Assembly: GCA_963814275.1 (NCBI GenBank)
Contig: CAWFCE010000001.1
Span: 195,307-259,306, forward strand
Origin: Candidatus Parcubacteria bacterium
GTDB taxonomy: Bacteria; Patescibacteriota; Patescibacteriia; Patescibacteriales; UBA12075
DNA length: 64,000 nucleotides
Reading direction: 5' to 3'
In this document: positions 3,373 through 64,000 of the stretch, one piece after another
Layout of the letters: every line of letters begins with the position of its first letter
Position numbering within the stretch: the stretch's first letter is position 1
Made by a program: the position numbers and the translations under genes
Notes under the pieces: generated by a model
Told to the model about the DNA's origin: nothing
What the model saw: only the letters and a program-made list of their open reading frames with translations
Databases searched by the model: none

Positions 3373-3500
3373 TCATAGAGCTTGAGAGGCGGAGTTTTGG
3401 GCTTTTGGCGGTTGATGATGATTATTACTATATTGAACCTTTTCCACGGATCGGCACGGATCAGAGACGGATTGACACGAATATTTTAAACCATATTAAA

Positions 3501-3521
3501 CCGGCATCGGCCGGTTTTTTT
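3501..3521 (+). terminator. intrinsic terminator after secY
   Basis: ccggc-atcg-gccgg stem-loop followed by a run of 7 T. Confidence 0.6.
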
Positions 3522-3721
3522 GATGCGTAATAGTTGTAAATAAATTTGCCAATGTAAGCAAATATTGTTAAAATTAATTAAGTACAGATAAGAAAACTTT
3601 TTGTAACAGCAAATACCGTTATGTCAGTGATAAAATATAATAATAATAGCTAGTATTAAATAAAAATTATACAAATTCGGATATCACTTGTTAGGCGAAA
3701 TAAATTTATTTATATAATTGT

Positions 3722-3841
3722 ATGGACAACAAAAACGTTATTAAACACCAAGAAAAACCAAAAAAAATGACAAAACTAGAAATACTTATTAGTGCTGCTA
3801 AGGGCATAGCCTTTGCGTTATTATTACTAGGTATTGGTTAA
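3722..3841 (+). CDS. possible small membrane peptide (39 aa), speculative
   Basis: ATG 3 nt after the left TIR. MDNKNVIKHQEKPKKMTKLEILISAAKGIAFALLLLGIG has a hydrophobic C-terminus. No SD. Too short for the ORF track. Confidence 0.2.
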   Translation: MDNKNVIKHQEKPKKMTKLEILISAAKGIAFALLLLGIG

Positions 3842-4072
3842 TATTGGGATGAAAGTGTAGCGGGTAAATCCTTAAAAATTACAAATTACAAGCACCAAAT
3901 TCCAAATAAATCCCAAATTCAAAATTTCAAATTCAAAACCCTGATTACGCGAATATCGGCTTTAAAGAGTGTTTTTAATTTTGGATTTGTGATTTTGAAT
4001 TTATTTGGAATTTAGAATTTGGTGCTTGGAATTTATTAACAATAGTGCTCTCATTTCATTCCGATATTAACC
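3836..4072. repeat. long imperfect palindromic element, copy 1 (ccaaat/atttgg word family)
   Basis: Inner inverted repeats caagcaccaaattccaaataaat (3889-3911) and atttatttggaa[tttagaa]tttggtgcttgg (3999-4029) flank an 87-bp core. The outer arms also pair imperfectly. Confidence 0.85.
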
Positions 4073-4370
4073 GGTATTTTATATATATTTCTATTTATAC
4101 TTAACGCCTTTTCAGGCAAGTATGATTGGATAATGTAAAATTATATAAATAAATTTACTTCGCCTAACACCACGATAAGCGGCTTGGTATTTTGTCAGAG
4201 ACCTCGTGCGAATTTTGAAAATGATTATTGATTATAACAAGGAATTTCAAAAACGTCGCTTTATCGGTGTAAGTTGTACAATATCTAGCTCTTTAAAATA
4301 AAAAATTTTTGAAGGATTTGACATTGAAGCCGTTATTTATTGAACATTTTGAAAGAAAAAGGAGGATGCA

Positions 4371-4979
4371 ATGAAACAAATTATGGTGGTTGAACGAAAT
4401 GCGCTTTTTGCGGATAAATTCTTTGAAGGTTATCTAGCAGCCGACGCTTTCGATTTTGAATCAGTGATATTGTCAAATTACATCTGGATGAGCAAAGACA
4501 AAGCTGAAATCAATCCCGACTACAAACAACCCGTCGGTTATTCGATTATCTACAATCCCGCGCTCAAACAGGTCTTTCTTTACCAGCGAGCCAAGGTCGA
4601 CCAGAACTATGCGGAAAAAAGATTGCAGGGCAAATGGTCCTGCGGGGTCGGTGGACACATTGAAAAAATTGACACTAAGCAGGGCAATCCGATCCACGAA
4701 AGCTCTCTCCGGGAAATCGAAGAAGAAATAAAGATATTCGGTAAAAAACGCATGCAGACGCTAGGGTATATCAATGACGACTCAGACGAGGTCGGTAAAG
4801 TCCATTTTGGCATTCTCTATCTTGTCATGATCAATGGCGAAAAAGTCGAACCGATCGACCCCGAAATCAGCGCAGGCGGGCTCGTTCCTCTCCGCGCTTT
4901 GGAAGAGAAGTGTAATGCCACGGACGTAATAGTCGAGAACTGGTCAAAAATCGCCCTTGGCCCCTTGAAAAGCATTTAA
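4371..4979 (+). CDS. Nudix hydrolase-like protein
   Basis: GGHIE..(insertion)..ESSLREIEEEIKI resembles the Nudix box GGxxE..REl.EE.g with a short insertion. Strong SD GGAGG at 4361-4365. Confidence 0.55.
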   Translation: MKQIMVVERNALFADKFFEGYLAADAFDFESVILSNYIWMSKDKAEINPDYKQPVGYSIIYNPALKQVFLYQRAKVDQNYAEKRLQGKWSCGVGGHIEKIDTKQGNPIHESSLREIEEEIKIFGKKRMQTLGYINDDSDEVGKVHFGILYLVMINGEKVEPIDPEISAGGLVPLRALEEKCNATDVIVENWSKIALGPLKSI

Positions 4980-4998: not shown

Positions 4999-5036
4999 GA
5001 GGCAAGCTCCGGCTTGCCTCCTTCAAAAATTTTTTA
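4999..5036 (+). terminator. stem-loop with distal T-run after the Nudix-like gene
   Basis: 9-bp stem gaggcaagc/gcttgcctc with loop tccg. The T-run starts 9 nt downstream and overlaps the right 26-bp IR. Confidence 0.45.
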
Positions 5037-5341
5037 TTTCAAAGGGCTAAGCCCTGCTGATTCGCTTGCATAATTTATCCGGTTTAAACGGTTTGTTCAT
5101 ATCCACGAAAATATTGGCTAAAAACAATTAACAAAATATCATTTTTTTTTCTTATTTCCTATTTTTAATCCGGATTATAATCTGGATTATTTTTTTTGCG
5201 TTCATTCGAGATACCTCCCCGTTTATATTTGAAAAATTTTAATTTGATGCCATTTTGTGTTATAATAACCTTATATATTCCTATAATATAAGGGGAAAAT
5301 CTTGGTGGTTTTTTTCCTTAATTTTTGTTTAATTTTAGCGA

Positions 5342-8718: not shown

Positions 8719-9144
8719 ATGGATGACAAGAAGATTGTAAATAGCGGGGTGGAGTTCGAAAAGGGGCATTTCGATAAGGAATTGGAAAAAATCCATCCGG
8801 AAGGGGAGTTCCCGCTTATCAAGGAACAAAAAGATGAAGACGGGAATATCGAAAGAAGCATTGACGAAGAGGCATTAATGGAATGTATCCATCAGCTGGC
8901 GCTAAAAGGGAGGACAAAAGAAGGGCAATTGCTGAATTATTTCCGGGACGAATTGAAAGTTAACGCAAAAGACAGGAAAGAGATAGTCATGAGGCTTAAG
9001 AAGAAATTTTTACCGGCACTGGACGCAGAGCTGGCCGCTAAAGAGGATAAGGCGCTGCGGGACCGGCAGGAAGCGATCATGGCGATCATCGCGGCGGCGG
9101 AGGCGGAGGAAGCGGAGGAACAGGCAGTGCGGAGGGCAGCATAG
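8719..9144 (+). CDS. hypothetical protein, charged, predicted helical
   Basis: 141-aa ORF with no recognisable domain. Glu/Lys-rich with a C-terminal AAAEAEEAEE run. Confidence 0.5.
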   Translation: MDDKKIVNSGVEFEKGHFDKELEKIHPEGEFPLIKEQKDEDGNIERSIDEEALMECIHQLALKGRTKEGQLLNYFRDELKVNAKDRKEIVMRLKKKFLPALDAELAAKEDKALRDRQEAIMAIIAAAEAEEAEEQAVRRAA

Positions 9145-9212
9145 TATGGATATAATTCACATATCTGTTGTCTGCCATTTTAAGGATTAATGTTTTTCTT
9201 TCCCAAATTATA

Positions 9213-9378
9213 AATTCCAAGCACCAAATAACAAATTCCAAATAAATTAGAAATTACAAATTCAAAATTTCAAAAAAATATCACAATATTATCGGATATT
9301 TTGAAACAATCTCAGTCTTGAATTTGGTATTTTTAATTTGATATTTATTTGGAATTTGGTGCTTGGAATTTGGAATTT
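9213..9378. repeat. palindromic element, copy 3 (ccaaat/atttgg family, divergent core)
   Basis: ccaagcaccaaata[acaa]attccaaataaat ... atttatttggaatttggtgcttgg. Same inverted repeats as copies 1 and 2 but a different interior. Confidence 0.75.
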
Positions 9379-9436
9379 AATTGATACAAATCTCGAATTA
9401 AAATTCGATTAAATAATAAGTAAATTTTTATAAAAT

Positions 9437-10582: not shown

Positions 10583-10700
10583 CATTGTTGTATCGATAAA
10601 ATTATTTTTTGTGAATATTTAAGCAGTTTCAAAAATTCTGTTATTGACAATTTATATTATAAAAAATTTACACAATTGTTGGCTAAAATTATTCAACAGA

Positions 10701-10792
10701 AATAATAAGACATAAGTAAATAAGTAATAAGCGCGTAGCTAAGGCTATTAAAAATTGAAAAGGCTTATTGCTTATGTCTTATTACTTATTAC
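10701..10792. repeat. ataagt/acttat word hairpin
   Basis: aataataagacataagtaaataagtaataagc ... gcttattgcttatgtcttattacttattac form an inverted repeat. Confidence 0.7.
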
Positions 10793-10876
10793 TATTTTGA
10801 AATTATCACGCGGATGAGGATAGTGTCAGAGTAATTATCACTAAACGAATAAATCCCATATTATACCCAAAATATT

Positions 10877-12794: not shown

Positions 12795-12990
12795 ATTATA
12801 ATTTCTAATTTCCTGCCGGTAGGCAGGGCAGGCAGGCTAAACAAATCCAAATTTTTCAAATCCCAAATTTGAAATTTAGGATGTAATAGTTGGCACTTAT
12901 TTTATTGTTTGATAATTAGAATTTGGTATATTCGAATTTGTTTAGAATTTAGATATTAGAAATTAGTATTTGTGGAATATTTGGAATATC
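12795..12990. repeat. word-repeat spacer (cctgcc/ggcagg hairpin, then ccaaat/atttgg vocabulary)
   Basis: cctgccggtaggcagggcaggcagg is followed by aaatccaaatttttcaaatcccaaatttgaaattt ... gaatttggtatattcgaatttgtttagaattt. Confidence 0.5.
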
Positions 12991-13410: not shown

Positions 13411-13411
13411 T

Positions 13412-15032: not shown

Positions 15033-15231
15033 CTGGTCTGGGCAAATTTGAAAAATGACAAATAATAAGGGGCTATGCATATTAATGCGCTGGCCCTTTT
15101 TTATTGACAGGGTTTGATAATTATTCTAATATTAAAATAATTTAGGCTTTTTATCGACAATCGAAGGGAATTAGCCCCGTTCTTTTTATTTAAATATCAA
15201 ACGCGAACCCACCCGTAAAGGAGGTGATGAT

Positions 15232-17511: not shown

Positions 17512-17785
17512 ACAACTTATAAAGCTGTTTGATCCCGGCTGACACCGGGGAATCCTGATTATCGATGATTATCAGGGCGGCGCAGGAAGAAATCCCGGTA
17601 ATTCGGGAGAGTAGAACCTGCCGGGTGCGCCCGTAATAGCGTTAAAAGCGGCCCTGTCGAAGCGTAGTGCGTTACGCTCGAAGTATTGGGAATAAGGGTG
17701 GTACCGCGGATGTTAAACCGAGTAAAGGTAAAACGTTCGTCCCTGTATATCATGATTTGTGGTATATGGAGACGGACGGTTTTTG
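17512..17785 (+). promoter_or_regulatory. T-box riboswitch leader (tRNA-sensing transcription attenuator) upstream of aspS
   Basis: Conserved T-box sequence aataaGGGTGGTACCGCGg at 17691-17709. AGAGTA element at 17606-17611. Terminator stem 17734-17778 plus TTTTT at 17780-17784. Located 5' of an aminoacyl-tRNA synthetase gene. Confidence 0.75.
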
Positions 17786-17787: not shown

Positions 17788-17870
17788 AGATAACAGATAG
17801 CAGATAACAGACGACAGTAAGATGCCTTAGATTCGTCTGTTATCTGTTATCTTCTATCTGTTGTCTTTTT
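17788..17870. repeat. gataacag word hairpin between the T-box terminator and aspS
   Basis: agataacagatagcagataacagacga ... tcgtctgttatctgttatcttctatctgttgtct, followed by ttttt. Confidence 0.75.
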
Positions 17871-19739: not shown

Positions 19740-19830
19740 ATCCCCTCGGCTCGCTTTGCCCGCTCGGGGCAGGCGTGGATCGGAGATCGTGAATCGTGGA
19801 TCGGAGGTCATGGATTGGAGATGGGAAAGA
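19735..19830. repeat. gatcgtgaatc word repeat plus GC-rich hairpin
   Basis: ggatcgtgaatcccctcggctcgctttgcccgctcggggcaggcgtggatcggagatcgtgaatcgtggatcggagg starts inside the last aspS codons. Confidence 0.5.
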
Positions 19831-19884
19831 GTTTTTTAAGCCAGGCTTTATAACTTTTAACTTTATTACTTTATAACTTAATAA

Positions 19885-22543: not shown

Positions 22544-22764
22544 AATTGGATATTGAGAAATGAGAAAAATTGTTTTTTCGGCCGGCTGCGGGAAATTACG
22601 ATAAGGCAATATTAAACATTTTTACACTAATTATCACGGATTTTTGACGGATTTACACGGATTTTATAAGGTTTTTCTCGAGTTTCAAATTGAGAAATAT
22701 TGTAAAATTATATACATATCATATTTTTTATAATTCCGAAATATATTAATCATTTTATCGATAT

Positions 22765-26716: not shown

Positions 26717-26718
26717 AT

Positions 26719-26824
26719 ATAATACGAATGCTACGAATTACGTTCCGAATGCCCCGAATGCTATATTACGAATTCGGATATATTCGCGGCATTCGGAACG
26801 TAATTCGTAGCATTCGGATTATAA
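26719..26824. repeat. cgaatg/cattcg word hairpin (empty copy)
   Basis: Arms 26721-26752 and 26789-26820 pair over 32 bp with 1 mismatch. The element ends 5 nt before the scpA ATG. Confidence 0.85.
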
Positions 26825-26827
26825 CAT

Positions 26828-27538: not shown

Positions 27539-27542
27539 AGCA

Positions 27543-27644
27543 TAATACGAATGCCCCGAATGGCGCTCCGAATGCCGCAAATATATCCGAATTCGTAATA
27601 TAGCATTCGGAGCATTCGGAACGTCATTCATAGATTCGGATTAT
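27543..27644. repeat. cgaatg/cattcg word hairpin (empty copy)
   Basis: It starts ataatacgaatg and ends attcggattat, like the 26719 copy. Imperfect arms. It ends 12 nt before the scpB ATG. Confidence 0.75.
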
Positions 27645-27655
27645 ATACATACCAT

Positions 27656-28240
27656 ATGTTGAAGTCAAAAATAGAAGCCTTATTGTTCATTTCCGCCAAA
27701 CCGATGGCAGTCAGCCAATTGGCCGATTTGTTAAAAGTAAAAAAAGATGAATTGGTAAAGGCCGGCGATGAGCTGGTGGAGGAATACCGGCAAAGCCAAA
27801 AGGGCGTTCAGATAATAAAAAACGGCAATAAATTCCAGATGGTCAGCTCGCCCGAACACGCCAAGCTGGTGCAGGAATTCATCAAAGACGAAACGACCGG
27901 CGAATTGTCGCGGCCCAGCCTGGAGGCGCTCACTATCATCGCATACCGCGGACCGATCTCAAAGCTGGATCTTGACCGGATCAGGGGCGTGAATTGCTCA
28001 CTGATCATCCGCAATTTGCTCTTGCGCGGCTTAGTCGAGGCTAAACACGACAAAACCAAGCAGGAGACGTATTATACCGTAACTTTCGACTTTATCCGCT
28101 TCCTGGGTATAAATGATATAAAAGAACTGCCCGACTTCGAGCGCCTGCATAAGGATGATACCATTGACAGGATTTTATCCGATAATGAATCTTCTGCCGA
28201 TAAAGCGGAAAATATAAATAATAACCAATCGGAGGATTAA
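27656..28240 (+). CDS. scpB: segregation and condensation protein B
   Basis: 194 aa. IEALLF.S..P. and SLEALTIIAY.GPI....L..IRGV motifs. Adjacent to scpA. Confidence 0.88.
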   Translation: MLKSKIEALLFISAKPMAVSQLADLLKVKKDELVKAGDELVEEYRQSQKGVQIIKNGNKFQMVSSPEHAKLVQEFIKDETTGELSRPSLEALTIIAYRGPISKLDLDRIRGVNCSLIIRNLLLRGLVEAKHDKTKQETYYTVTFDFIRFLGINDIKELPDFERLHKDDTIDRILSDNESSADKAENINNNQSED

Positions 28241-28326
28241 TTTATAATTTATAAGTTGTAATTTGTAAACAGTTACGGATTAAGGTATTTTAAAGTTTAT
28301 AAATTATAAATTACAAATTATAAATT
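28241..28326. repeat. tataaat/tacaaat word hairpin
   Basis: tttataatttataagttgtaatttgtaaac ... gtttataaattataaattacaaattataaatt form imperfect inverted arms. Confidence 0.6.
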
Positions 28327-30217: not shown

Positions 30218-30218
30218 T

Positions 30219-30305
30219 AGAATCCGAATGCCCCGAATGGCGAATCCGAATGCCCCGAATGGCGAATCCGAATGCCCCGAATGGCGAATCCGAATGCTCC
30301 GAATG
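30219..30305. repeat. tandem 24-bp repeat gaatccgaatgccccgaatggc (about 3.5 copies), left arm of a split cgaatg element
   Basis: Direct reading. The ORF-track start at 30214 merely translates this array. Confidence 0.9.
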
Positions 30306-30309
30306 TATT

Positions 30310-30723
30310 ATGATGGTAAAAATTCTATATAAAGACCTTTCCTATATAATCAATGGTTTGCTGTTTAAGACTCATAGAGAAATGGGTAGGTTTAAAAACG
30401 AGAAACAATACGCAGACTATTTCGAGAAATTATTGATTGAAGAAAAAATTAATTATATAAGAGAATATAGATTTAAAGAAATTTTGTTAAGCAAAACCAG
30501 AATAAGGTGTATTGTTGATTTCATAATTGAGAATATTATTATAATTGAATTTAAGGCTAAAAATTTTATAGTTAAGGAAGATTACCTGCAGACGCAAAGA
30601 TATTTACGCACTTTAAACCTGGAATTGGGTATCCTTATGAATTTTAGACAATACCGTTTAGCTCCAAAAAGAGTTTTAAATAGTGATTACGAACATTCGG
30701 GGCATTCGGAAAATAATTCGTAA
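30310..30723 (+). CDS. GxxExxY-family (PD-(D/E)XK-like) protein
   Basis: D.I.E..II.E.KA and Q...YLR...L.LGIL.NF core pattern typical of the GxxExxY family. Start moved to the ATG at 30310, after the tandem repeat. The last ~12 codons are encoded by the right-arm repeat. Confidence 0.7.
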   Translation: MMVKILYKDLSYIINGLLFKTHREMGRFKNEKQYADYFEKLLIEEKINYIREYRFKEILLSKTRIRCIVDFIIENIIIIEFKAKNFIVKEDYLQTQRYLRTLNLELGILMNFRQYRLAPKRVLNSDYEHSGHSENNS

Positions 30724-30735
30724 CATTCGTATTAT
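30689..30735. repeat. right arm of split cgaatg element
   Basis: Its reverse complement ataatacgaatgttacgaattattttccgaatgccccgaatg is nearly identical to the 5' arm of the 26719 hairpin. It ends at the base before the fba ATG. Confidence 0.85.
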
Positions 30736-32799: not shown

Positions 32800-32804
32800 C
32801 TTTC

Positions 32805-32897
32805 AAATTTCGAATGACGAATGTCGAATGACAAATATATTTTTCTATATAATATTTTACGATAATTTGTCATTCGACATTCGTAATTCGTCATTTT
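32805..32897. repeat. cgaatg-family hairpin filling the spacer between the two tRNAs
   Basis: aaatttcgaatgacgaatgtcgaatgacaaat ... atttgtcattcgacattcgtaattcgtcatttt. The inner 20 bp pair perfectly. Confidence 0.85.
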
Positions 32898-32900
32898 CGG

Positions 32901-39354: not shown

Positions 39355-39530
39355 CAACTGGACATTTTTCAGTCGGCAGAACCAGCAATTGCGTTCTGCC
39401 GATTTTTATTTTCCTTAAAAATGGCCGCCTTAATTTATAATTCTTTAACTCACGGCTAACAATTCACTAATATTCCGGTGTTAAGGTGTATAAAAGCAAA
39501 AGAACTCCATATAACTATTAACAAAAAATT

Positions 39531-40658
39531 ATGAAAAACAGCACAAAAAAAGATTATGCGGAAATGCTTTCCCGATCGCCGGAAATAAAAGCTTCATTCA
39601 GGAAGAAGCGGCGGTGGCCGGCGGTATTGAGCGTGTCCGCGATTATAGTTTCTTTGATAAGCGGCTATCTGGCAATTAATGCCGCCTATGTATCCTGGCA
39701 GCTTAAAAACGTAATTGCGAGCGAAGGCAAGGCCGTGCAAGCGCGGCTTGATACGTTAATGCCGGTAGAGAGCTCCAGCCTGGCGCCAGCCGCTCAAAAT
39801 CCGGCTGCCGCGAAATCCAGTGAAACCGTAGTACCGATGACCGAGGCGCAATACAACCAGCAAATGTCCAAGAATTTCCAGCGGGCTTCGGGGACGGCGG
39901 CATCCACATCTCCGAGCAAGATCCAGGCGCCGGACACGGGAACGCAAAAAGCGACAGGCACTTTCCAGGAAATTAATGTCAATTTCGACCTGGGGGCGCT
40001 ATTTTCCGCTTCGCCTCAGATCTCCCTGGCTGACCAAAGCGGCGGCAATGCCGCCGGGGAAGCCTGGATGGCCGTATACCAGGGCAATACTTTCCTGCGG
40101 CTTGGGGCGATCAATCTCCCGGCGCCTGCCGGAGATACGCATTATGAAGCGTGGATAGCGAAAGCGCCGGCCGGTACCGCTTTTATCGATGCCGGACCGC
40201 TGACCTTTGACACCGCGTCAGGCGGCGCGATCCTGACCATGGCCACGGAAGGCGACCAATCGGAGTATCGGACGGTTTATATCAGCCGGGAGACAGGACA
40301 AAACGCCGTTAAACCAGCCAATATAATCATGTCCGGCACGTTTGCGGCAACACAGGATCCGCATGTCAGTTCGGGGAAAATAGCGCCGGCCCAGCCGTCA
40401 AGCGTTTCGATGCCGACCGTTACCGACAAGGCACCAATTGGCGATTCTACCCAGGCGCAAAGCTCCTTAAGCGAACAGGATCAATTACTCATGTCCCTCC
40501 TGGGAGGGCAGACAGCCGGAAAGAATGGCGGCAATACAAGCCAATCGCTTGGTGATTCCGCCCTGCTTCAGGCGCTTCTTGGCGGGAAAAGCACTACCGG
40601 TACCGGAGGAGCGGATCTGCAAGCCCTCCTGAAATCGCTCGGTCCGACCGCCAAATAA
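39531..40658 (+). CDS. membrane-anchored protein with RskA-like (anti-sigma-K C-terminal type) extracytoplasmic domain
   Basis: Single TM near residue 35. The segment AWMAVYQGNTFLRLGAINLP.P.GDTHYEAWI...G...IDAG resembles RskA C-terminal domains. No N-terminal zinc anti-sigma domain was seen. Confidence 0.35.
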   Translation: MKNSTKKDYAEMLSRSPEIKASFRKKRRWPAVLSVSAIIVSLISGYLAINAAYVSWQLKNVIASEGKAVQARLDTLMPVESSSLAPAAQNPAAAKSSETVVPMTEAQYNQQMSKNFQRASGTAASTSPSKIQAPDTGTQKATGTFQEINVNFDLGALFSASPQISLADQSGGNAAGEAWMAVYQGNTFLRLGAINLPAPAGDTHYEAWIAKAPAGTAFIDAGPLTFDTASGGAILTMATEGDQSEYRTVYISRETGQNAVKPANIIMSGTFAATQDPHVSSGKIAPAQPSSVSMPTVTDKAPIGDSTQAQSSLSEQDQLLMSLLGGQTAGKNGGNTSQSLGDSALLQALLGGKSTTGTGGADLQALLKSLGPTAK

Positions 40659-40726
40659 TTTAATTTTTCCATGAATTGCGTGTCGTGCAACGTAAAGTTG
40701 TTATCAGTGGCGTGTTGCCTTAAAAA

Positions 40727-41236
40727 GTGGTAAGCTTAATATGTATGGCCAAGCTTATCGCAAAAAAGATCACCCATAGATTATTCATCATCAATATCGC
40801 TCTCAAGGGATTGGATGGAGTCGTGGAATTTTTCGGCGGGATACTCCTGTTTTTGACGAATCCGGGAGCCATTAACCATTGGATATTCATCCTGACCCGG
40901 GAAGAGTTGGCCGAAGACAAAAGCGATTTTATCGCCAATTACCTTTTGAAATCAGCGGATTCGCTATCGGTAAGCGGACAGCACTTCGGCGGTTTTTATT
41001 TGATTTCCCACGGGATCGTGAAAGTTTTTCTGGTAGCGTCATTATTGCGCCAGCGGCTTTGGGCATATCCTCTGGCAATCGTATTTTTAATTTTGTTCAT
41101 CGTCTATCAAGTCTACCGCTATACTTTTACGCACTCGCCGTATCTGATCCTGCTAACGGTTTTTGACGCACTGATCGTCGTTTTGACGCAACTTGAGTAT
41201 AGACGGCTGAGGGCAGAACACATCAACGGCGTATAA
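40727..41236 (+). CDS. DUF2127-like membrane protein
   Basis: Four predicted TM helices. Start uncertain (ATG at 40745 also possible). Confidence 0.45.
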   Translation: MVSLICMAKLIAKKITHRLFIINIALKGLDGVVEFFGGILLFLTNPGAINHWIFILTREELAEDKSDFIANYLLKSADSLSVSGQHFGGFYLISHGIVKVFLVASLLRQRLWAYPLAIVFLILFIVYQVYRYTFTHSPYLILLTVFDALIVVLTQLEYRRLRAEHINGV

Positions 41237-41293
41237 TTAAATCCGGGAAACGCGGTAAATGCTCAAAAGCGAAAATTATTCGATAAAACAAAT

Positions 41294-41315
41294 AAACAGC
41301 CGAAAGGCTGTTTTT
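41294..41315. terminator. bidirectional terminator between convergent genes
   Basis: aaacagcc-gaaa-ggctgttt flanked by A-rich and T-rich runs. Confidence 0.65.
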
Positions 41316-41348
41316 GCGTGCTCGTTACAATGTCATTATATTTAAGTC

Positions 41349-42044
41349 CTATATCCGTAAATCGGTCGGCGGACCGTTTTCAGCGTTATTATCGTCTTTT
41401 TTGTATACGCGGTTTTTGATCATTATTGCGGCAAATAAGGATAGGGAGATGATAATAACCGTAAAAACCAGGTGTTGAATGGATCTGACCCGTAATATGA
41501 TCGACGCTAGCCCGTTATGGAAATGATAACCGAGAAAAATAAATATGGGCGCGTATATTATCGATGCAAGTGTGTTATAAAAGAAAAATGTTTTCCAGCG
41601 GATTTTAAGGCCGCCCGATAAAAACGGACCGAAAAAGCGCAAGCCGGGTATGAACCGGGTGCTGAAAATCGCCTTGCCCGCATGGCGTTCGAACATATTA
41701 TCGTATTTTTCCAGGATCTTCGGTTTGAGCCTCTGTTGTTTCGTTTCGAAAAAATGCCGGTTAGTGCGGGCGAACCAATAGAGGAAATTATTGCCGATAA
41801 TGACCGCGAACAGACTGATTGCGATTGCCTTGGGCAAAGTGCTGAAACCGGCGCTTACCGCGTAGCCGACCGATATCAGGATAGCCTCTTCGGGCAATGG
41901 TATCAGATAACCGGCCAAAGACAGCGCGATGAATATTCCGGTGTAAGTCAAATGTTCCAGGATGGCAAAGGGGACTATCGTATCCATATTAGCATTTGAG
42001 ATTTGCGCCTGTGGCGCGTGATTAATCGCGATTTTGTTTGGCAA
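41349..42044 (-). CDS. DedA/VTT-domain membrane protein
   Basis: LPEEAILISVGY and F..RFIPGLRFFGPF..G motifs. Confidence 0.75.
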   Translation of the reverse strand: MPNKIAINHAPQAQISNANMDTIVPFAILEHLTYTGIFIALSLAGYLIPLPEEAILISVGYAVSAGFSTLPKAIAISLFAVIIGNNFLYWFARTNRHFFETKQQRLKPKILEKYDNMFERHAGKAIFSTRFIPGLRFFGPFLSGGLKIRWKTFFFYNTLASIIYAPIFIFLGYHFHNGLASIILRVRSIQHLVFTVIIISLSLFAAIMIKNRVYKKDDNNAENGPPTDLRI

Positions 42045-42080
42045 TTATAACAATAGGCGCAAACGGATTTGGAGAAATAT

Positions 42081-42632
42081 TTATTTTACTTTATAAAGAT
42101 AGTAATTCGTGCTTTTGGGATTGTCCGGTTTGGTTTTAATTATCTTATAAGGGGACTCACTTTGGATTTTATCGGACAATACGGCCACTATAGCGCCCGG
42201 CTTTGCCTCCTTTTTGATCTTGGGCCAGAGCCTTTCGATCATCGGCGGTACCAGAAAAAGATAGATTATATCCGCCCGTGATATATCGGCGGCGAAGAAG
42301 TCGCGGCGGCGTATTTCTACGCGGGATTTTTTCACCCAAGCTTTTAATCGGGCATACCATGCGGGAAGGGGGGACAGTTCATAGCCGATCAGCGTATCCG
42401 GATTGTATTTTTCCGCGGCGAAAAGGAAATCGCCTTTGCCGCAGCCCAGATCGAGGATTACGGTATTTTCGCCAACCGGCAGTTCGGCTAATAACCGTTG
42501 GCAGTACGCGCGCGGTGTCGTCACATAGGGCACGCGGGTACGGCGGTAAACCAGGATGTCGTATAATAGAAAAGCCAAACCCGCTATTACGGTTAATATT
42601 ATTGTAGTCTGCAGAAAGTTTTCCATGTCCAA
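42081..42632 (-). CDS. class I SAM-dependent methyltransferase with N-terminal TM helix
   Basis: Motif I VILDLGCGKGDF. Rossmann-like pattern downstream. Confidence 0.75.
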   Translation of the reverse strand: MDMENFLQTTIILTVIAGLAFLLYDILVYRRTRVPYVTTPRAYCQRLLAELPVGENTVILDLGCGKGDFLFAAEKYNPDTLIGYELSPLPAWYARLKAWVKKSRVEIRRRDFFAADISRADIIYLFLVPPMIERLWPKIKKEAKPGAIVAVLSDKIQSESPYKIIKTKPDNPKSTNYYLYKVK

Positions 42633-42934
42633 TAGTTTGGTTATCTGCTGTCATCCTGGAGGCCGCAGGCCGATAGGATCCCGGGCCACTTTATGCCGTT
42701 CAAGAATGACTATAGTATAATTTAACGCGCCACCCTGCACTTTTCGGGGTTTAACAAAGTTTTTCATATACGCCTCGGGGCCCTACCGCCCCTTTGGGGC
42801 TCCGGGGTGACAGATATCACGTATTTATTACGTTGGTAATAATATTGTACCTCAAAATCACTCTTGCCGCCAATAGCCAATGATTTGCCGTTTGTGGTAC
42901 AATTATAGTGTAATAAATCATTCTGTGTATAAAT

Positions 42935-46714: not shown

Positions 46715-46757
46715 GGCGAATGGCGAATGGCGAATGTCGAATGGCGAATGGCGAATT
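46715..46757. repeat. tandem heptamer ggcgaat (about 6 copies)
   Basis: gaggcgaatggcgaatggcgaatgtcgaatggcgaatggcgaat lies directly after the stop codon. No inverted partner nearby. Confidence 0.85.
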
Positions 46758-48008: not shown

Positions 48009-48869
48009 ATGCCGGAATTGCCGGAAGTGGAAACCGTGGTGCGCGATCTGCGCCCCAAGGTTTTACGAATCGCCATAAAAAACATAGAAATACTGCTGCC
48101 CAGGATCGTCAAAAACAGACCGGCTGAATTCAAAAAAAATCTGATAAATAACGAGTTCAGCGGGATCGAGCGGATCGGCAAGCTCATGATATTCCGGCTG
48201 CAGAACGGCGGCAAAGCCATGCTGGTTCATCTCAAGATGACCGGCCAGCTGGTATATTGCCAGGGGGAGAAAATTGTCGCCGGTGGCCATGATGACGGAA
48301 CCGACCCCACTTGCCTGCCGGACAAATGGACCAGGGTGGTTTTTCATTTCGCTGACGGCGGTCGATTGTGTTTTAACGATATGCGGACATTCGGTTATTT
48401 ATCGCTGGCGGATACGGACAAATTAAGTTTGATCAGAAGGAGGTACGGCCCGGATCCGTTGACCAGTAAATTCACATTGGCCGATTTTAAACGGACAATT
48501 AAGGACAGGCATACCAGTATAAAAGCTTTGCTTTTGAATCAGGAAATTATTGCCGGGCTTGGCAATATCTATGTCGATGAGATCCTATACCGGGCCGGAG
48601 TCAGGCCGGCGAGAAAGGCCAGTGGCCTAAAAAACTTCGAAATAGAGGCAATTTATGGAGCGGTAAAACCCGTGTTGCAGAGAGCGATCAAGAACCGCGG
48701 GACGACATTCAATAATTACGTGGACGGCAACGGCCAGAGGGGCAATTTTGTCCGGCTGCTCAAAGTTTACGGACGGCAGGGGAAATCATGCAAGCGCTGC
48801 GGAACAGCCATTAAAAAGGCCAAGGTGGCCGGGCGGGGGACGCATTATTGCCCGGTATGTCAATCTTAG
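48009..48869 (+). CDS. mutM: formamidopyrimidine-DNA glycosylase
   Basis: N-terminal MPELPEVE. C-terminal zinf finger C.RCG......(n)..YCP.CQ. Confidence 0.93.
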   Translation: MPELPEVETVVRDLRPKVLRIAIKNIEILLPRIVKNRPAEFKKNLINNEFSGIERIGKLMIFRLQNGGKAMLVHLKMTGQLVYCQGEKIVAGGHDDGTDPTCLPDKWTRVVFHFADGGRLCFNDMRTFGYLSLADTDKLSLIRRRYGPDPLTSKFTLADFKRTIKDRHTSIKALLLNQEIIAGLGNIYVDEILYRAGVRPARKASGLKNFEIEAIYGAVKPVLQRAIKNRGTTFNNYVDGNGQRGNFVRLLKVYGRQGKSCKRCGTAIKKAKVAGRGTHYCPVCQS

Positions 48870-48950
48870 GCAATAGGGTTGTAGGCGGTAGGCAATAGGG
48901 TTGTGGGCGGTAGGCAATAGGGTTGTGGGCGGTAGGGTTGTAGGGGTTGC
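48868..48950. repeat. tandem ggcaatagggttgt(a/g)ggcggta repeat (about 3 copies)
   Basis: Direct reading. It starts at the mutM stop codon. Confidence 0.85.
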
Positions 48951-49630: not shown

Positions 49631-49670
49631 ATTAGGCGGTAGGCAATAGGCAATAGGCGGTAGGCGTAGG
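49631..49670. repeat. ggcggtaggcaatagg word repeat (same orientation as 48868)
   Basis: attaggcggtaggcaataggcaataggcggtaggcgtagg. Confidence 0.8.
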
Positions 49671-49703
49671 TTTATATTTAGTATTATTATTTAACAAGGA
49701 GGT

Positions 49704-50075
49704 ATGTATCACAAAACGACCTATAAAGACCTGGTAGTATGGCAGAAGTCTATGGATTTGGTCGTTGAGGTATATAAATTAACGGCAAAATATCCCCAGG
49801 AAGAAAAATACGGATTAGTTTCACAATCAAGAAGATGCGTAGTGTCAATGCCTTCAAACATTGCAGAAGGTAAGCGAAGGGGTACACTTCCTCAATTCGT
49901 TCATTTCTTGCTTATAAGCTATTCATCAGGGTCGGAACTGGAAACCCAATTAGAGATTGCCAAGCGATTAAATTTCGTGAAACCGAATGATTATGTAAAA
50001 GCGGAAGAACTGTTGGATGAAGTAATGAAAATGCTAAATAAAATGATTAACAATAATCATGCTATAAAGGTGTAG
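49704..50075 (+). CDS. four-helix-bundle protein (23S rRNA intervening-sequence protein family)
   Basis: [11 protein letters not shown]...VY.LT..+P.EE.YGL.SQ.RR..VS.PSNIAEG pattern. Confidence 0.8.
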
Positions 50076-50112
50076 GCAAGGCTATTGCCTGTTGCCTACA
50101 ACCCTATAGCCT
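50072..50112. repeat. inverted copy of the ggcaatagg words
   Basis: The reverse complement of gtaggcaaggctattgcctgttgcctacaaccctatagcc reads ggctatagggttgtaggcaacaggcaatagcc. It overlaps the stop codon of the four-helix-bundle gene. Confidence 0.8.
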
Positions 50113-50119
50113 AAAACGA

Positions 50120-54810: not shown

Positions 54811-55039
54811 GTTAATATTGCCATGAATTGAGAGCGGCTGAATATATAAAATTTCAAATTCCAAGCACCAAATTCCAAATAAATTCAAAATCACAAATCT
54901 AAAATACAAAACACTTTGTTAAAGCCGATATTCGTGTAATCAGGGTTTTGAATTTGAAATTTTGAATTTGGGATTTATTTGGAATTTGGTGCTTGGAATT
55001 TATTAACAATAGTGCTCTCATTTCATTCCAGTATTAACC
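54811..55039. repeat. long imperfect palindromic element, copy 2 (core inverted relative to copy 1)
   Basis: IRs ccaagcaccaaattccaaataaat (54861-54884) and atttatttggaatttggtgcttgg (54973-54996). The core 54885-54972 equals the reverse complement of 3912-3998 apart from a few mismatches and one indel. The right flank is the same as in copy 1. Confidence 0.9.
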
Positions 55040-55336
55040 CCTAAGGTTTAATATTGTAATAAAAGTGAAACGCTATAATATAATACATTTGGAAATTGCT
55101 TATTTGGTGTCTGGAAATTAGTTTTTACGCACTTCGAAACCAGCCAATTTCTAACTTCCACATAACCAGTTTCCCATTAAGATTTAGGGTATATTCCGGT
55201 GTTTCACTTTTATATCAATATCAACCCTTGAGTATTTAAGTCTTTATGAGATGGGGTAGTGAATAAGATTTGAAATTTTCCCCATAAGACTATCCGAGAA
55301 TCAATTTTTTATATATAGCATAAAAACCTTATACAC

Positions 55337-60290: not shown

Positions 60291-60390
60291 ACGCGAACGT
60301 GCAAATTAAGTTACAAATTTACGGATTGCAAATACGGATAAATTATTTGTAATTTGTAAATTTGTAGTAAGATTTGCGCATTCGCGCAAA
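60291..60390. repeat. tacaaat/acggat word hairpin between the MFP and RND genes
   Basis: acgcgaacgtgcaaattaagttacaaatttac ... gtaaatttgtagtaagatttgcgcattcgcg form imperfect inverted arms ending ~10 nt before the RND ATG. Confidence 0.65.
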
Positions 60391-60400
60391 TATATTTATC

Positions 60401-63400
60401 ATGGCAGAAACAAGCCAAAAGCAACAATCGCATAGATCTGCCGATACGCTGTATCTGGCTAAATTAACTTTCAATGAACGGCTAAGAAAGACTTGGCTGA
60501 ATTTTTTCGTGTCCCGCTTCCGGGTAGTCTTGCTTCTGATCATGGTAATTACGGGCTGGGGCCTGTATTCTTTTTTTCAGTTGCCGCGGGAATCCAATCC
60601 GGAAGTGAAGATTCCGATCGCTGTCGTTATCACGGCTTATCCGGGCGTGGGCCCGAGCGATATCGAAGAATTGGTGACCAAGAAGCTCGAAACCGGGATT
60701 GCCAGCCTGAAGAATATCAAGCAAGTTACTTCCTATTCATATAATTCGGTTTCCAGTATTACGGTGGAATTCGAAGCCAGCGCCAATCTGGACGATTCGA
60801 TCAGGAAGCTGAGGGATGAAGTAAACAGCCTGAAGAACGATCTGCCCGATGATGCCAGCGAACCGGTGGTGAACGAAATTTCTTTTGACGATACGCCGAT
60901 ATTGACGGTTGCCCTGACCGGGCCATTTGACGGATTCCAGTTGAGGCAGGCCGCCGACGACATCAAAGATGAGCTGGAAAAATTGCCCGATATCCGCGAA
61001 GTTGTGGTATCGGGAGGCGACGAGCGGGAATTCCGGATCTCTTATGATCCCAATAAGCTGACGTTTTATAATATCACGCCGGACCAGGCCAACGCCGCGG
61101 TCAAGGCGACCAACCTGGTCATTCCGGCCGGGAATTTCGACGGCCGGGAGTTCACCTATCCCGTCAGGGCCGATGCCCGGTTCTTCGATGCCGCCAAGCT
61201 GGCCGATATTCCTCTTATCCATACCGATAAGGGAGCGATCGTTTATTTGAAGGATGTGGCTGACGTTGCCGAAACGGCCATCAAACGCACGGTATATTCC
61301 CGTTTTTCGACCGAGGGGTCAATACCGCAAGCCGCCGCCACCCTGAGTGTGATCAAAAAGACCGGCGGCAATATCGTTAATACCGTCCAAAATGCATACG
61401 GCATCCTCGACGAGCAGATCAAGCTTCAGCCCGAAGGCGCCGGTTACGTGACAATCACCGATTTTGCCAAGGACATAAACGATGAGTTTACCCGCCTGAC
61501 CCATGATTTTATCCTAACCCTGCTTTTGGTATTCAGCATACTTTTCTTGGCTGTAGGCCTCAAAGAGGCGCTGGTGGCGGGACTGGCCGTGCCGATGGTG
61601 TTTTTCGTTACCTTCGGCGTGATGGACCTGTCCGGCATTACCCTTAATTTTCTTTCTATATTCTCCCTGATCTTGTCCTTGGGACTTTTGGTTGATGACG
61701 CGATCGTAGTTGTGTCCGCTACCAAACAATATATGGCTACCGGCAAATTCACGCCCGAAGAGGCGGTGCTATTGGTCTTGAACGATTTCAAGGTTGTCCT
61801 GACTACCACCACCCTGACCACGGTATGGGCTTTTCTGCCTCTGCTTTTGGCTACCGGAATCATCGGATCATTCATCAAGTCGATCCCGATAACCGTATCG
61901 GTAACTCTTATCAGCTCGCTGTTGATCGCGCTGATGGTCAATCATCCGCTGGCGGCGGTATTGGAGCGGGTGCGGTTTACGAAAAAAGTATTTTTTCCCC
62001 TGCTTCTCCTGATGTTCGGGGCGAGCTATTTTGCCCTAACCTTCAATAATATTTACGGATATTTGGCGGCTGGCGTATTCTTCTTCCTTATTTTATTCCT
62101 TATCAGGTGGTACTTGCGGAAAGGCCGGCCGTTATTGGCGGCTAACGCCCAGCTGGCGGCAAAGGAGAGGAAAGACGACAATTCGATCAAGGAAAAACTG
62201 CGCAAACAAAGCACGGACTCGACAGACCGGCTAGGCCGCTGGCTCCATGGCGTGGTCAGTCTGAACCGCATCTTGCCCCGTTATGACCGGTTTCTCTGCG
62301 GTATACTGATAAATAAGCGCCGGCGCCGTTTTATCATCGGTTTGACCTTCGGCTTGTTTCTCGCGGCTGTCTCTTTGCCGGCAATCGGCATTATTCCGAT
62401 CGAATTTTTTCCCGCGTCGGACGAAAATCTGATTTTCGTCAATCTGCGCGCTTCGACCGGCCTGAAATTGGACCGGACGGATCTGATCGTGAAACAAGTG
62501 GAGGAGAAGCTGCTCCGTTATCCGGAAATAAAGAATTTTTCCACCGTCGTCGGCCGGTCTTCCAGCGGCTCAGATATCGGTCCGACCAGCAGTTCGGGGA
62601 ACCTGGCTTCCCTCACTGTCAATCTGGTCGAGCCGGGAAAGCGCAACATAACTTCTTACGACTTGGCGGAAAAAATGCGCCTGGATTTCGCGGATATTCA
62701 GGACGCGGAAGTGACCGTAGAATCTTTGCAGGGCGGACCGCCTTCCGGCAGCGCCTTCGAGGCCCGTGTTGTCGGTGACGACCTTCAGGTGCTGGATCGG
62801 ATCGCCAACGAGCTGAAGCCGCTTTTGACCGCCATACCGGGCGTGGTCAATGCCGATATATCGCTCAAGGAGGCGCCGGCCGAATATACTTTCGAGCTGA
62901 TGCCCGATAAAATGGAGCTCTACAGCCTGAATGCCGCGTACGTCGGTTCGGTACTCCGGACCGCGATTGCCGGCACGGATGTGTCGACTGTGATCCTGGG
63001 CGGCAAAGAGATCAAGGTCAGGGCGGAATTCAAACCGGAGAGCATTCCCGATCTGGCCGCGATCCAGAATATACAGATATTGAATCTGGCCAAACAGCCG
63101 GTATTCATAAAAGACGTGGCCAAGGTCGAATTGGCGCCATCGGTCGAATCGATCACCCGGATCGACCAGAAACGGGCGGTCATTCTGTCCGCCGGGGTTA
63201 CCGGTGAAACGCGGGCCAACGTCGTATTGTCCGAATTCCAGAAGAAGTTAGCTTCCGAATATACCCTGCCTGCCGGTTACAGTATCGTTTACGGCGGAGA
63301 AAACGAACAGAACGTCGAGTCGGTCATATCGATCATCAAAGCGATGGTGTTGGCCGCGCTGTTGATCATTTCCACCCTGATAATCCAGTTCAATTCATTC

Positions 63401-63841
63401 AAAAAGGCCATGATCGTGCTGGTCGCCATCCCCTTGGCCCTGATCGGCGTCTTTTTCGGAATGGCAATTGCCCGCATCAATCTGAGCTTTCCCGGTTTGA
63501 TCGGCATTCTCGCCCTTTTCGGGATCGTGGTCAAAAATGCCATCATCCTGATCGACAAGATCAATCTGAACCTGAAATACAATATATCGTTCGAAAATGC
63601 GATCATCGATGCCGGCAAATCCCGTTTCGAAGCGATTATCATCACTTCGATCACTACTATCTTGGGTATTATCCCGATCACATTATCGAACGCTTTATGG
63701 CGCGCTTTGGGCGGGGCGATCATCTTTGGCTTGATGCTGTCGTCCTTTTTGACCTTGTTTATCGTGCCGATCTTGTATTATATGTTTTTCAAGAAGAGTG
63801 AAGGGACTGAGGACACGCAGCGTGTCGCACATAGCACGTAA
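60401..63841 (+). CDS. RND efflux transporter permease (AcrB/HAE1-like)
   Basis: About 1146 aa, 12 TM with two large extracytoplasmic loops and the internal duplication typical of RND pumps. Start moved to the ATG at 60401 (MAETSQ). Confidence 0.92.
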   Translation: MAETSQKQQSHRSADTLYLAKLTFNERLRKTWLNFFVSRFRVVLLLIMVITGWGLYSFFQLPRESNPEVKIPIAVVITAYPGVGPSDIEELVTKKLETGIASLKNIKQVTSYSYNSVSSITVEFEASANLDDSIRKLRDEVNSLKNDLPDDASEPVVNEISFDDTPILTVALTGPFDGFQLRQAADDIKDELEKLPDIREVVVSGGDEREFRISYDPNKLTFYNITPDQANAAVKATNLVIPAGNFDGREFTYPVRADARFFDAAKLADIPLIHTDKGAIVYLKDVADVAETAIKRTVYSRFSTEGSIPQAAATLSVIKKTGGNIVNTVQNAYGILDEQIKLQPEGAGYVTITDFAKDINDEFTRLTHDFILTLLLVFSILFLAVGLKEALVAGLAVPMVFFVTFGVMDLSGITLNFLSIFSLILSLGLLVDDAIVVVSATKQYMATGKFTPEEAVLLVLNDFKVVLTTTTLTTVWAFLPLLLATGIIGSFIKSIPITVSVTLISSLLIALMVNHPLAAVLERVRFTKKVFFPLLLLMFGASYFALTFNNIYGYLAAGVFFFLILFLIRWYLRKGRPLLAANAQLAAKERKDDNSIKEKLRKQSTDSTDRLGRWLHGVVSLNRILPRYDRFLCGILINKRRRRFIIGLTFGLFLAAVSLPAIGIIPIEFFPASDENLIFVNLRASTGLKLDRTDLIVKQVEEKLLRYPEIKNFSTVVGRSSSGSDIGPTSSSGNLASLTVNLVEPGKRNITSYDLAEKMRLDFADIQDAEVTVESLQGGPPSGSAFEARVVGDDLQVLDRIANELKPLLTAIPGVVNADISLKEAPAEYTFELMPDKMELYSLNAAYVGSVLRTAIAGTDVSTVILGGKEIKVRAEFKPESIPDLAAIQNIQILNLAKQPVFIKDVAKVELAPSVESITRIDQKRAVILSAGVTGETRANVVLSEFQKKLASEYTLPAGYSIVYGGENEQNVESVISIIKAMVLAALLIISTLIIQFNSFKKAMIVLVAIPLALIGVFFGMAIARINLSFPGLIGILALFGIVVKNAIILIDKINLNLKYNISFENAIIDAGKSRFEAIIITSITTILGIIPITLSNALWRALGGAIIFGLMLSSFLTLFIVPILYYMFFKKSEGTEDTQRVAHST

Positions 63842-63900
63842 CACATAGCACATAGCACGTAACACATAGCACGTAGCACATAGCACGTAGCACATAGCAT
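63826..63900. repeat. tandem cacatagcacgt(a/aa) repeat (about 5 copies)
   Basis: Direct reading. The last RND codons and the stop lie inside the first repeat unit. Confidence 0.85.
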
Positions 63901-64000
63901 AAGGCTCATCAGTTAGTGGTGGGCTTTTTTTGTATTAAGTATTTTGTATTAAGTATTAAGTATGATGGCTGAAGAGGGGGAGTGGATAGTTTAAACTTTT

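Follow-up and report, generated by a model that had tools for sequence, protein, structure and literature searches.

The closest described counterparts of the repeat elements considered here, i.e. hairpins with arms built of 7-nt units in the spacers of a 64,000-nt stretch of DNA from a Candidatus Parcubacteria bacterium (GenBank assembly GCA_963814275.1, contig CAWFCE010000001.1, positions 195,307 to 259,306; the window), are the intervening sequences (IVSs) of bacterial 23S rRNA. The Coxiella IVS has a 28-bp stem of terminal inverted repeats with an S23p (PF05635) open reading frame (ORF) in its loop, and includes tandem GACAGAT heptamers, the number of which is strain-dependent; its stem is cut by RNase III, and RNase III excision is known for the IVSs of Coxiella, Salmonella and Leptospira (PMC4990558). 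The resemblance of the window elements to the IVSs of Coxiella, Leptospira, Xanthomonas and Brucella extends to a long inverted-repeat stem, heptamers in the stem region, a PF05635 loop ORF in the sense orientation and harmless insertion into a transcribed essential unit (PMC4990558). With regard to the stem of at least 20 bp that defines an IVS, the arms of the one PF05635-bearing element, which encodes a four-helix-bundle (4HB) protein, span 49631-49672 and 50076-50112, and elements without an ORF (solo hairpins) have stems of 25-60 bp; the PF05635 ORF itself lies on the same strand as the neighbouring Rbr and Dfx genes. By contrast, the hosts of the window elements are junctions of protein genes and tRNAs rather than rRNA, most copies have no ORF, and a second type of cargo gene, for a GxxExxY nuclease, occurs within the same architecture. 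An IVS in the strict sense is located in helix 25 or 45 of 23S rRNA; the window contains no rRNA, so its elements are IVS-like.

The second described group comprises the heptanucleotide repeats, which are, according to the summary of Mrazek 2007 given in PMC4679880, the most abundant class of long simple sequence repeats (SSRs). TAACTGA arrays in Beggiatoaceae overlap stop codons (PMC4679880), and in Xanthomonas GGGAATC, described as a G-quadruplex motif, forms about 70 convergent array pairs (PMC4692102). The window repeats share with these, with the SSRs surveyed by Mrazek, with the short tandemly repeated repetitive (STRR) sequences of heterocystous cyanobacteria and with TAACTGA repeats of Beggiatoaceae, Cyanobacteria and Bacteroidetes alike, a unit of 7 nt and an intergenic location, in many cases at stop codons; the copy number of the published repeats varies, as does that of a 46-nt super-unit (2 or 3 copies) in a related Falkowbacteria population. 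Being head-to-tail, over-represented and intergenic, the window repeats belong to this heptanucleotide SSR/STRR-type class. The published repeats have, however, been treated as SSRs, G-quadruplexes or regulator sites, unlinked to cargo genes or IVSs, and are described with one dominant word per genome, whereas this patescibacterial window has six or more families.

A third comparison is with MITEs (miniature inverted-repeat transposable elements). The Correia elements of Neisseria are, as outlined in PMC2649163, co-transcribed hairpin MITEs, transcripts of which are bound or cleaved by RNase III. Like the window hairpins, the Correia elements, and also ERIC, REP/BIME, RUP and BOX elements, are short ORF-less palindromes present in multiple copies at gene junctions; Correia elements differ in having fixed, non-repetitive inverted ends, a TA target duplication, no 7-nt periodicity and a parent transposase that is unknown or absent. 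The window elements, by contrast, have arms of tandem units and cargo-bearing relatives. In form they recall the eukaryotic Foldback (FB) transposons, which have long inverted arms made of short tandem subrepeats, variable in number, and a loop with or without coding sequence. The Foldback transposons are far larger, encode unrelated proteins and have no sequence in common with the window elements, so the analogy is one of form alone.

It is proposed here, with a probability of roughly 60%, that the repeats filling the spacers are families of foldback-type insertion elements with the architecture of 23S rRNA IVSs. The elements are of a known kind, i.e. heptanucleotide repeats together with IVS-type stem-loop insertions. 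In the literature searched, no description was found of their abundance in a patescibacterial genome, of their placing at junctions of protein genes and of tRNAs, of the MITE-like way in which ORF-less hairpins relate to cargo-bearing cassettes, or of the rule, holding across phyla, that 4HB and GxxExxY genes have heptamer arms; among the open-access papers searched, none was found that ties either gene type to heptamer arrays outside the Coxiella IVS.

Heptamer arrays at gene junctions

A first-pass annotation, made from the letters of the window alone, had reported at least seven vocabularies of short words repeated, directly or inverted, in the spacers. All 23 of the 23 positions given for the words carry them, and the observation is real and highly non-random. 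The window (GC ~48%) has 10.7 kb of spacers, 44 of them at least 60 nt long. Counted on both strands of the spacers against a zero-order expectation, most words are strongly enriched, and not so in coding sequence (CDS): CGAATG occurs 30 times against 3.7 expected (CDS, 21 against 25.8), GATAACAG 7 against 0.4, GGCAATAGG 5 against 0.0, GGCGGTAGG 6 against 0.0, CACATAGC 6 against 0.2, CCAAAT 29 against 7.5, TACAAAT 12 against 4.9 and ACGGAT 12 against 3.7. As isolated words, ATAAGT (18 against 14.7) is barely and TATAAAT (23 against 9.7) moderately enriched, though the arrays to which they belong, at 10700 and 28238, are nonetheless real. The vocabularies are not separate inventions of single spacers, in that at least the CGAATG set constitutes one dispersed family with conserved ends, found in other genomes also.

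The feature common to the spacer repeats across the window is a period of 7 nt, which the first-pass annotation had missed, as it had the two genes located inside hairpins and the likeness to 23S rRNA IVSs. Self-matches of 5-mers at lag 7 number 18.2/kb in spacers, compared with ~4/kb at other lags and 1.0/kb in CDS; the 197 such matches in spacers compare with 27.3±7.4 in 200 dinucleotide-preserving shuffles (z=23), and the lag-14 harmonic is similarly evident against the same shuffles (z=20). Tandem Repeats Finder reports ~30 period-7 arrays in the window. The units are mostly of ~7 nt, occasionally of 8-11 nt, with super-units of 21/22 nt (both 22-nt arrays are composites of 7+8+7), and each consists of a short family-specific core plus variable filler. 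Exact lag-7 runs of at least 17 nt are present in 13 of the 44 longer spacers, where 0.39 would be expected; on inspection, and with degenerate arrays included, about 20 of the 44 contain arrays, i.e. about half rather than the 'nearly every long spacer' of the earlier description.

That the repeats might be assembly artefacts is addressed by independent short-read contigs from Logan (ERR11571143), which are 100% identical to the window over 28303-30231 and 36504-42784. The contig for 28303-30231 breaks off within the heptamer arrays and hairpin arms, implying that the repeats fragment short-read assemblies; since it is identical up to and into the arrays, they are present in reads and are not a product of one assembly. 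Comparable architecture is also found in many independent assemblies, including complete Xanthomonas chromosomes.

Comparison with relatives reveals the arrays as insertions. The closest ScpA relatives among species-representative genomes are in metagenome-assembled genomes of Candidatus Parcubacteria, Falkowbacteria and Patescibacteria (best identity 76%), which places the organism among the Patescibacteria (CPR), in the neighbourhood of Falkowbacteria; the order tRNA-edit, ScpA, ScpB, S11, TIM, FBA, TPR, tRNA-Thr, tRNA-Tyr is kept in many relatives. Between TIM and FBA, the 518 nt of the window compare with -7 to 21 nt in 7 relatives; between ScpA and ScpB, its 117 nt, entirely hairpin, compare with 15-45 nt in most relatives; and the tRNA-Thr|tRNA-Tyr gap, a single hairpin of 100 nt in the window, measures 6-28 nt in 6 relatives. 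The short gaps at the same junctions demonstrate that the elements are insertions at gene junctions. In one relative (L007) the TIM|FBA gap, at 88 nt, has a different heptamer hairpin (GTTATAA). The tRNA-Thr|tRNA-Tyr junction appears to be a recurrent landing site; in L006 (15087-15701) the same spacer contains a 204-aa ORF with weak helix-turn-helix matches only.

Eleven loci in the window are inverted array pairs, with stems of 25-60 bp. When RNA folding was compared with that of shuffles, 9 of 10 loci tested were far more stable (z -4.7 to -12.2; individual values in Table 1), the locus at 12830-12950 being scarcely more stable than its shuffles (z -0.7). Complementarity between arms (95% at 26718) exceeds identity between the units within an arm. 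For FtsX, MutM, Rbr, 4HB, RND, AspRS, TIM and sulfatase the stop codon falls within the first unit or at it, which extends to further genes what had been noted before. The view that the hairpins are not plain intrinsic terminators is also upheld: instead of a short GC-rich stem with a T-run, they have AT-rich or mixed stems without T-runs, and are located within conserved operon-like gene strings and a tRNA pair. Canonical terminators with a GC stem and a T-run are present separately, e.g. at 3500-3530, 15065-15105 and 32990-33035. At gathering thresholds Rfam matches nothing in the window other than the two tRNAs, and for the hairpin before aspS the matches at E-value thresholds are only spurious ones to miRNA families. 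A tendency for the purine-rich arm to come first, considered as a sign of transcription-coupled orientation, was dropped, because the property is strand-symmetric in a palindrome.

Hairpins with a gene in the loop

Two elements in the window enclose a gene. In the first, at the TIM|FBA junction, the ORF at 30313-30723 matches Pfam PDDEXK_3 (2e-17) and TIGR04256, GxxExxY (3.5e-16). Its 5' arm (30218-30312), directly upstream of the ORF, consists of 3.9 copies of a CCGAATG-type 22-nt unit (7+8+7), and its 3' arm (30684-30735), of complementary CATTCGG arrays, overlaps the ORF end and reaches the FBA start codon. The mechanical ORF listing gives a 169-aa ORF from a GTG (30214-30723), which reads through the 5' arm; the start is likely to be the ATG at 30313, giving 136 aa. 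The closest public entry (P0001), of 113 aa, is 100% identical and covers 83% of the 136-aa ORF.

Two solo hairpins of the same CGAATG family (26717-26827 and 27539-27655) can be aligned over their full length, both mutually and with a third hairpin, which in a Falkowbacteria population (L142) lies in an unrelated setting, flanked by a GT2 gene and a PDDEXK_3 gene; the ends common to all three are ATAATNCGAATG ... CATTCGGATTATA. Each half of the solo hairpins has homology to the arms that flank PDDEXK_3 genes, both in the window and in L142 and L121 (alignments A2-A4), so that the solo hairpins relate to the cassette as a MITE does to its full element. As is typical of MITEs, they are multi-copy, with inverted ends in common with a gene-carrying element; a separate element, of 240 bp, is present in 2 copies. 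Neither a target-site duplication nor a transposase acting on the ends was found, the cargo proteins not being known transposases.

PDDEXK_3 genes are bracketed by inverted arms in all six of the independent contexts found (TIM|FBA, GT2|radical-SAM, inside a GT2 ORF, DAGK|?, PrgI|TraC and DsbA|POR); the core of the arms is CGAAT in five of these and CAAAT in one. Among the strains represented by loci L142-L151 (~1770-2000), in which the PDDEXK_3 protein is identical, the CGAATG spacer upstream of the gene has either 2 or 3 copies of a 46-nt unit, showing that arrays evolve on the time scale of populations. None of the sense frames of CGAATG-type arms contains a stop codon, which allows such insertions to be read through. 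In L121 (326-2332) a PDDEXK_3 domain and both CGAAT arms are in frame within a 668-aa ORF for a GT2-like membrane glycosyltransferase. No further homologue of the 4HB or PDDEXK_3 proteins was found in 59 ScpA-anchored loci, and a scan of viral contigs with the PDDEXK_3 protein gave no match. The PDDEXK_3 family is described as being of unknown function and as having undergone multiple transfers (PMC3424549).

The second cassette, between Rbr and Dfx, carries the 4HB ORF (49704-50075), which matches PF05635, 23S_rRNA_IVP (6e-37), as well as TIGR02436, and aligns with the Xanthomonas protein XCC0516 (PDB 2GSC; 9e-23). Its 5' arm has 5.6 copies of TAGGCGG/TAGGCAA and its 3' arm, TATTGCCTGTTGCCTACAACCCTATAGCCTA, is the complement of these words; the inverted-repeat score of the flanks is 15.5, compared with 7.2 in shuffles. 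Genes of the 23S_rRNA_IVP family have also been reported scattered inside cas operons (PMC3936711).

The generality of this arrangement is apparent from a metagenome scan with the window 4HB protein, which gave 80 loci (44-65% identity, GC 36-60%) with 62 distinct 4HB genes. With 160 nt on each side of the gene considered and an inverted-repeat score of at least 13 required, inverted flanks are present for 82% of the 62 genes, compared with 3.3% of 122 control genes from the same loci (Mann-Whitney p=1e-20). Lag-7 matches reach 53/kb in spacers adjacent to 4HB genes, while the remaining spacers of these loci have 13.9/kb and coding sequence 3.4/kb; ~1-2.5/kb is seen at other lags, with the exception of lag 8 (13/kb). 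The 5' arms, mostly (NNNTAGG)n, run from the upstream gene's stop codon, the 3' arms are complementary to them, and most arrays begin within about -8 to +16 nt of that stop codon. Of 60 loci, 56 have the 4HB gene in the same orientation as the host gene upstream. In Xanthomonas/Lysobacter (L152, 1424-1873; L155, 1483-1939), the 4HB gene is located between accB and accC and is flanked by GGGAATC.. / ..ATTCCC arrays. Five loci from Pirellulales/Planctomycetota (L043, L046, L054, L055 and L057), met by chance, contain heptamer arrays and inverted pairs, e.g. AATGACC/GGTCATT at 16551-16625 of L046; the phenomenon therefore reaches Planctomycetota.

Mechanism and competing explanations

The element proposed here is a palindrome, both arms of which are tandem arrays of ~7-nt units, placed exactly at junctions within co-directional and presumably co-transcribed gene strings. 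Some copies carry a small loop gene, for a GxxExxY PD-(D/E)XK nuclease with CGAAT-core arms or for a 23S_rRNA_IVP/S23p protein with TAGG-core arms, and the ORF-less hairpins with the same arms are their cargo-less relatives, as MITEs are to full elements. Since, across genomes, the core word goes with the cargo family, the arms are probably cis sites recognised by the cargo protein. By analogy with IVSs, the transcribed stems are probably cut by RNase III, which would free the flanking cistrons or tRNAs; such cutting would make insertions in operons and in the tRNA pair tolerable, and a T-run unneeded. The length of the arrays would then drift through replication slippage. Of the functions suggested by the first-pass annotation, a list that also included protein-binding arrays and recombination substrates, the evidence favours selfish elements and RNA processing sites; its cautious interpretation was partly right.

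Several observations weigh against this proposal. There is no target-site duplication, nor any defined transposition signature, to be seen when the filled TIM|FBA and ScpA|ScpB sites are compared with empty ones. On the sense strand, G.U mismatches in the stems are no more frequent than A.C ones, either in the window (26 compared with 26) or in the 4HB loci (74 compared with 94), so nothing points to pairing kept by selection at the RNA level, and the palindromy may have arisen solely at the DNA level, through the way in which the elements form. The window has no rnc gene. About eight arrays are one-sided (8639, 19774, 46715, 48867 and 63827 among them), and may be plain slippage products or half elements. 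For the AAATTCC, TAATTTA, AATAAGT and CAAATTA families neither a cargo-bearing copy nor a copy in another genome was found, the AAATTCC-family motif CAAGCACCAAAT being absent from all 156 loci fetched. Finally, the link of word to cargo for PDDEXK_3 comprises six contexts in all.

Some of these observations are what would be expected were the arrays neutral SSRs born in place, by slippage favouring 7-nt units, with inverted pairs arising secondarily, e.g. by template switching. The one-sided arrays and the lack of a G.U excess fit such an origin, as does the variation of copy number among strains, seen both in the Falkowbacteria population and in Coxiella (PMC4990558); heptanucleotide repeats are, as outlined in PMC4679880, the commonest long SSRs across many unrelated bacteria, and slippage has been put forward as a model for them. 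A neutral origin is nevertheless unlikely, since it leaves unexplained why elements of ~100 nt are conserved end to end across contexts and genomes, why inverted arms are linked to 4HB genes (82% as against 3%), why the core word matches the cargo family, and why the arms complement each other better (95% at 26718) than the units within them match. Slippage thus probably acts on the elements, yet is insufficient as their origin.

It is less probable still that the hairpins are cis-acting RNA elements selected by the host, i.e. 3' stabilisers, RNase III/E sites or pause sites that tune the expression of neighbouring genes, the ORFs being incidental. Their very stable stems, located at stop codons, inside operons and in the tRNA pair, would suit such a role, and co-transcribed MITEs, the Correia elements of Neisseria, do modulate their neighbours through RNase III, as outlined in PMC2649163. 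The nearest relative (L001), moreover, has a hairpin at the same place in the aspS leader with a similar word (CAGATAA), and one in the tRNA-edit|ScpA spacer with a different word (AGAAAAC/GTTTTCT). Most relatives, however, have no element at all at the same junctions, the stems have no wobble-pair signature, T-runs are absent though normal terminators exist elsewhere in the window, and the same elements carry genes of a selfish type with a sporadic distribution (PMC3424549, PMC3936711).

[quoted passage not shown] Such a role is very improbable for the window elements, because the cores differ within one genome (CGAAT, TAGG, AAATTCC, ACAGATA, TAATTTA ...), such that no single host factor fits, most of the words are incapable of forming G-quadruplexes, and the cargo proteins, a case that belongs to the foldback proposal, are the only candidate binding proteins with a link to the arrays.

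CRISPR-like or TIGR-like guide arrays (the latter reported, as outlined in PMC12045711, in parasitic bacteria) and an assembly artefact, to which the repetitive sequence and the breaking of short-read assemblies might point, are hardly credible, given contiguous 7-nt units without spacers, no cas or tas (Nop-domain) gene among the 59 window genes scanned, no Rfam matches in the window besides tRNA, an independent assembly that is 100% identical into the arrays, and the same architecture in finished Xanthomonas chromosomes.

Elements of the window and their wider meaning

Pfam scans of 59 ORFs reveal a ribosomal-protein/SecY block followed by housekeeping genes nearly all on the + strand, including those for MacB/FtsX, AspRS, AsnRS, ScpA/ScpB, TIM, FBA, POR, MutM, rubrerythrin, desulfoferrodoxin, CorA and MFP-RND; further genes encode a DUF5671 protein and a PEP-CTERM protein, and tRNA-Thr and tRNA-Tyr are at 32727-32985 (ARAGORN, Rfam). 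The elements distributed among these genes are collected in Table 1.

Table 1. Repeat elements in the spacers of the window, numbered from its first nucleotide
Element	Position	Strand	Evidence
Direct array, ACGGAT-core units, period ~10-11, after SecY	3445..3482	+	Sequence, word positions
Copy A, ~240-bp nested palindromic element	3836..4075		Inverted repeat I2; folding z -7.6
ATAACAG x5 direct array from the FtsX stop codon	8639..8673	+	Tandem Repeats Finder score 56
Long hairpin, AAATTCC / CAAGCACCAAAT family; 61-nt arms 79-80% complementary	9205..9380		Inverted repeats I3, I4; alignment A1
AATAAGT / CTTATTA heptamer hairpin	10700..10793		Folding z -4.7
Weak degenerate hairpin, CAAATCC-type units	12837..12945		Inverted repeat I9, 74% complementary; folding z -0.7
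ACAGATA heptamer hairpin, between T-box-like leader/terminator and aspS start	17788..17866		Folding z -9.2
Direct arrays 3' of the AspRS stop: CGTGAAT (19774-19803) and CTTTATAA (19846-19884)	19774..19884	+	
Direct array, ACACGGA-core units, period 10-11/21	22620..22666	+	
ORF-less CGAATG element, whole tRNA-edit|ScpA spacer	26717..26827		Inverted repeat I5; 42-nt arms 95% complementary; folds at -64 kcal/mol, z -12.2
ORF-less CGAATG element, ScpA|ScpB spacer	27539..27655		Folding z -5.0
TAATTTA / TTATAAA heptamer hairpin, ScpB|S11 spacer	28238..28326		Inverted repeat I11; folding z -5.3
CGAATG cassette with PDDEXK_3 cargo, TIM|FBA junction	30218..30735	+	
CGAATGA/CGAATGT hairpin, tRNA-Thr|tRNA-Tyr spacer	32801..32900		Inverted repeat I8, 91% complementary; folding z -7.1
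GGCGAAT x6 direct array just after the sulfatase-PhoD stop	46715..46756	+	Tandem Repeats Finder score 77
TAGGCAATAGGGTTGTGGGCGG x3.2 direct array, the MutM stop being the first TAG in it	48867..48945	+	Tandem Repeats Finder score 133
TAGG cassette with four-helix-bundle cargo, between Rbr and Dfx	49631..50119	+	
Copy B, ~240-bp nested palindromic element, opposite in orientation to copy A	54811..55040		Inverted repeat I1, 85% complementary; folding z -9.9
CAAATTA/ATTTGTA-type hairpin, between MFP and RND genes	60292..60386		Inverted repeat I6; folding z -8.6
GCACRTA x10 array including the RND stop	63827-63899	+	Tandem Repeats Finder 118/104
GTATTAA x4.6 array near the window end	63928-63963	+	Tandem Repeats Finder 60/50

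Copy A of the nested element has outer inverted ends GGTTAATATTGG.ATGAAA.GAGAGC and inner arms of AAATTCC/CAAATTC heptamers (3876-3947 and 3963-4034); its arms, loop and outer ends align with the reverse complement of 54811-55040, i.e. of copy B, the inner arms of which are at 54856-54915 and 54942-55001 (alignment A1). The gene for hyp141 (8719-9144), with the ATAACAG array on one side and a short CTGTTGTCTGCC stretch on the other, was considered as a third cargo and rejected: the inverted-repeat score of its flanks is 12.0 (z 1.4), and it has no family match.

A near-perfect inverted repeat of 31 nt, TAGCTCTTTAAAATAAAAAATTTTTGAAGGA (4286-4316 and 5019-5049), encloses a NUDIX gene (4371-4979); it is without heptamers and scores 26, compared with 8 in shuffles. 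The 3' end of tRNA-Tyr plus 13 nt (32965-32998) is duplicated 178 nt downstream (33143-33176; 88% identity), each copy being followed by a strong stem and a T-run; the duplication looks like an att-type footprint of integration or excision. The T-box that had been assigned upstream of aspS has weak support, the Rfam match being to the full model at 29.6 bits, compared with a gathering score of 93; the T-box-like leader (17556-17747) contains GGGTGGTACCGCG, and its terminator hairpin is at ~17735-17780.

A wider proposal, more tentative than that made for the window, is that heptamer-armed foldback cassettes are a widespread and unrecognised class of mobile element, the cargo of which would be element proteins that read the periodic core of their own arms, the 4HB/S23p pentamer reading TAGG, GGGAATC or GACAGAT and GxxExxY nucleases reading CGAAT. 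The rRNA IVSs would then be members resident in rRNA, and the long-unexplained excess of intergenic heptanucleotide repeats would be the footprint of such elements rather than of slippage, including the STRR sequences in cyanobacteria, GGGAATC in Xanthomonas and the arrays in Planctomycetota and Patescibacteria.

For genome analysis, the elements are of practical consequence, in that they occupy about half of the longer spacers, break short-read assemblies, lengthen ORF calls and can be located in frame within genes, as in L121; annotation pipelines should recognise them. Beyond this, three questions would become testable together, i.e. why 7-nt repeats dominate, what the 4HB and GxxExxY proteins do, and where the rRNA IVSs originate. 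That 7-nt repeats dominate has been recognised from the STRR reports and the 2007 survey onwards, without an agreed function, and the 4HB (23S_rRNA_IVP/S23p) and GxxExxY proteins, though very abundant, are sporadic in their distribution and annotated as "function unknown". If the arms are indeed cis sites for the cargo proteins, binding or cleavage assays on a defined 7-nt array would reveal the activity of these proteins.

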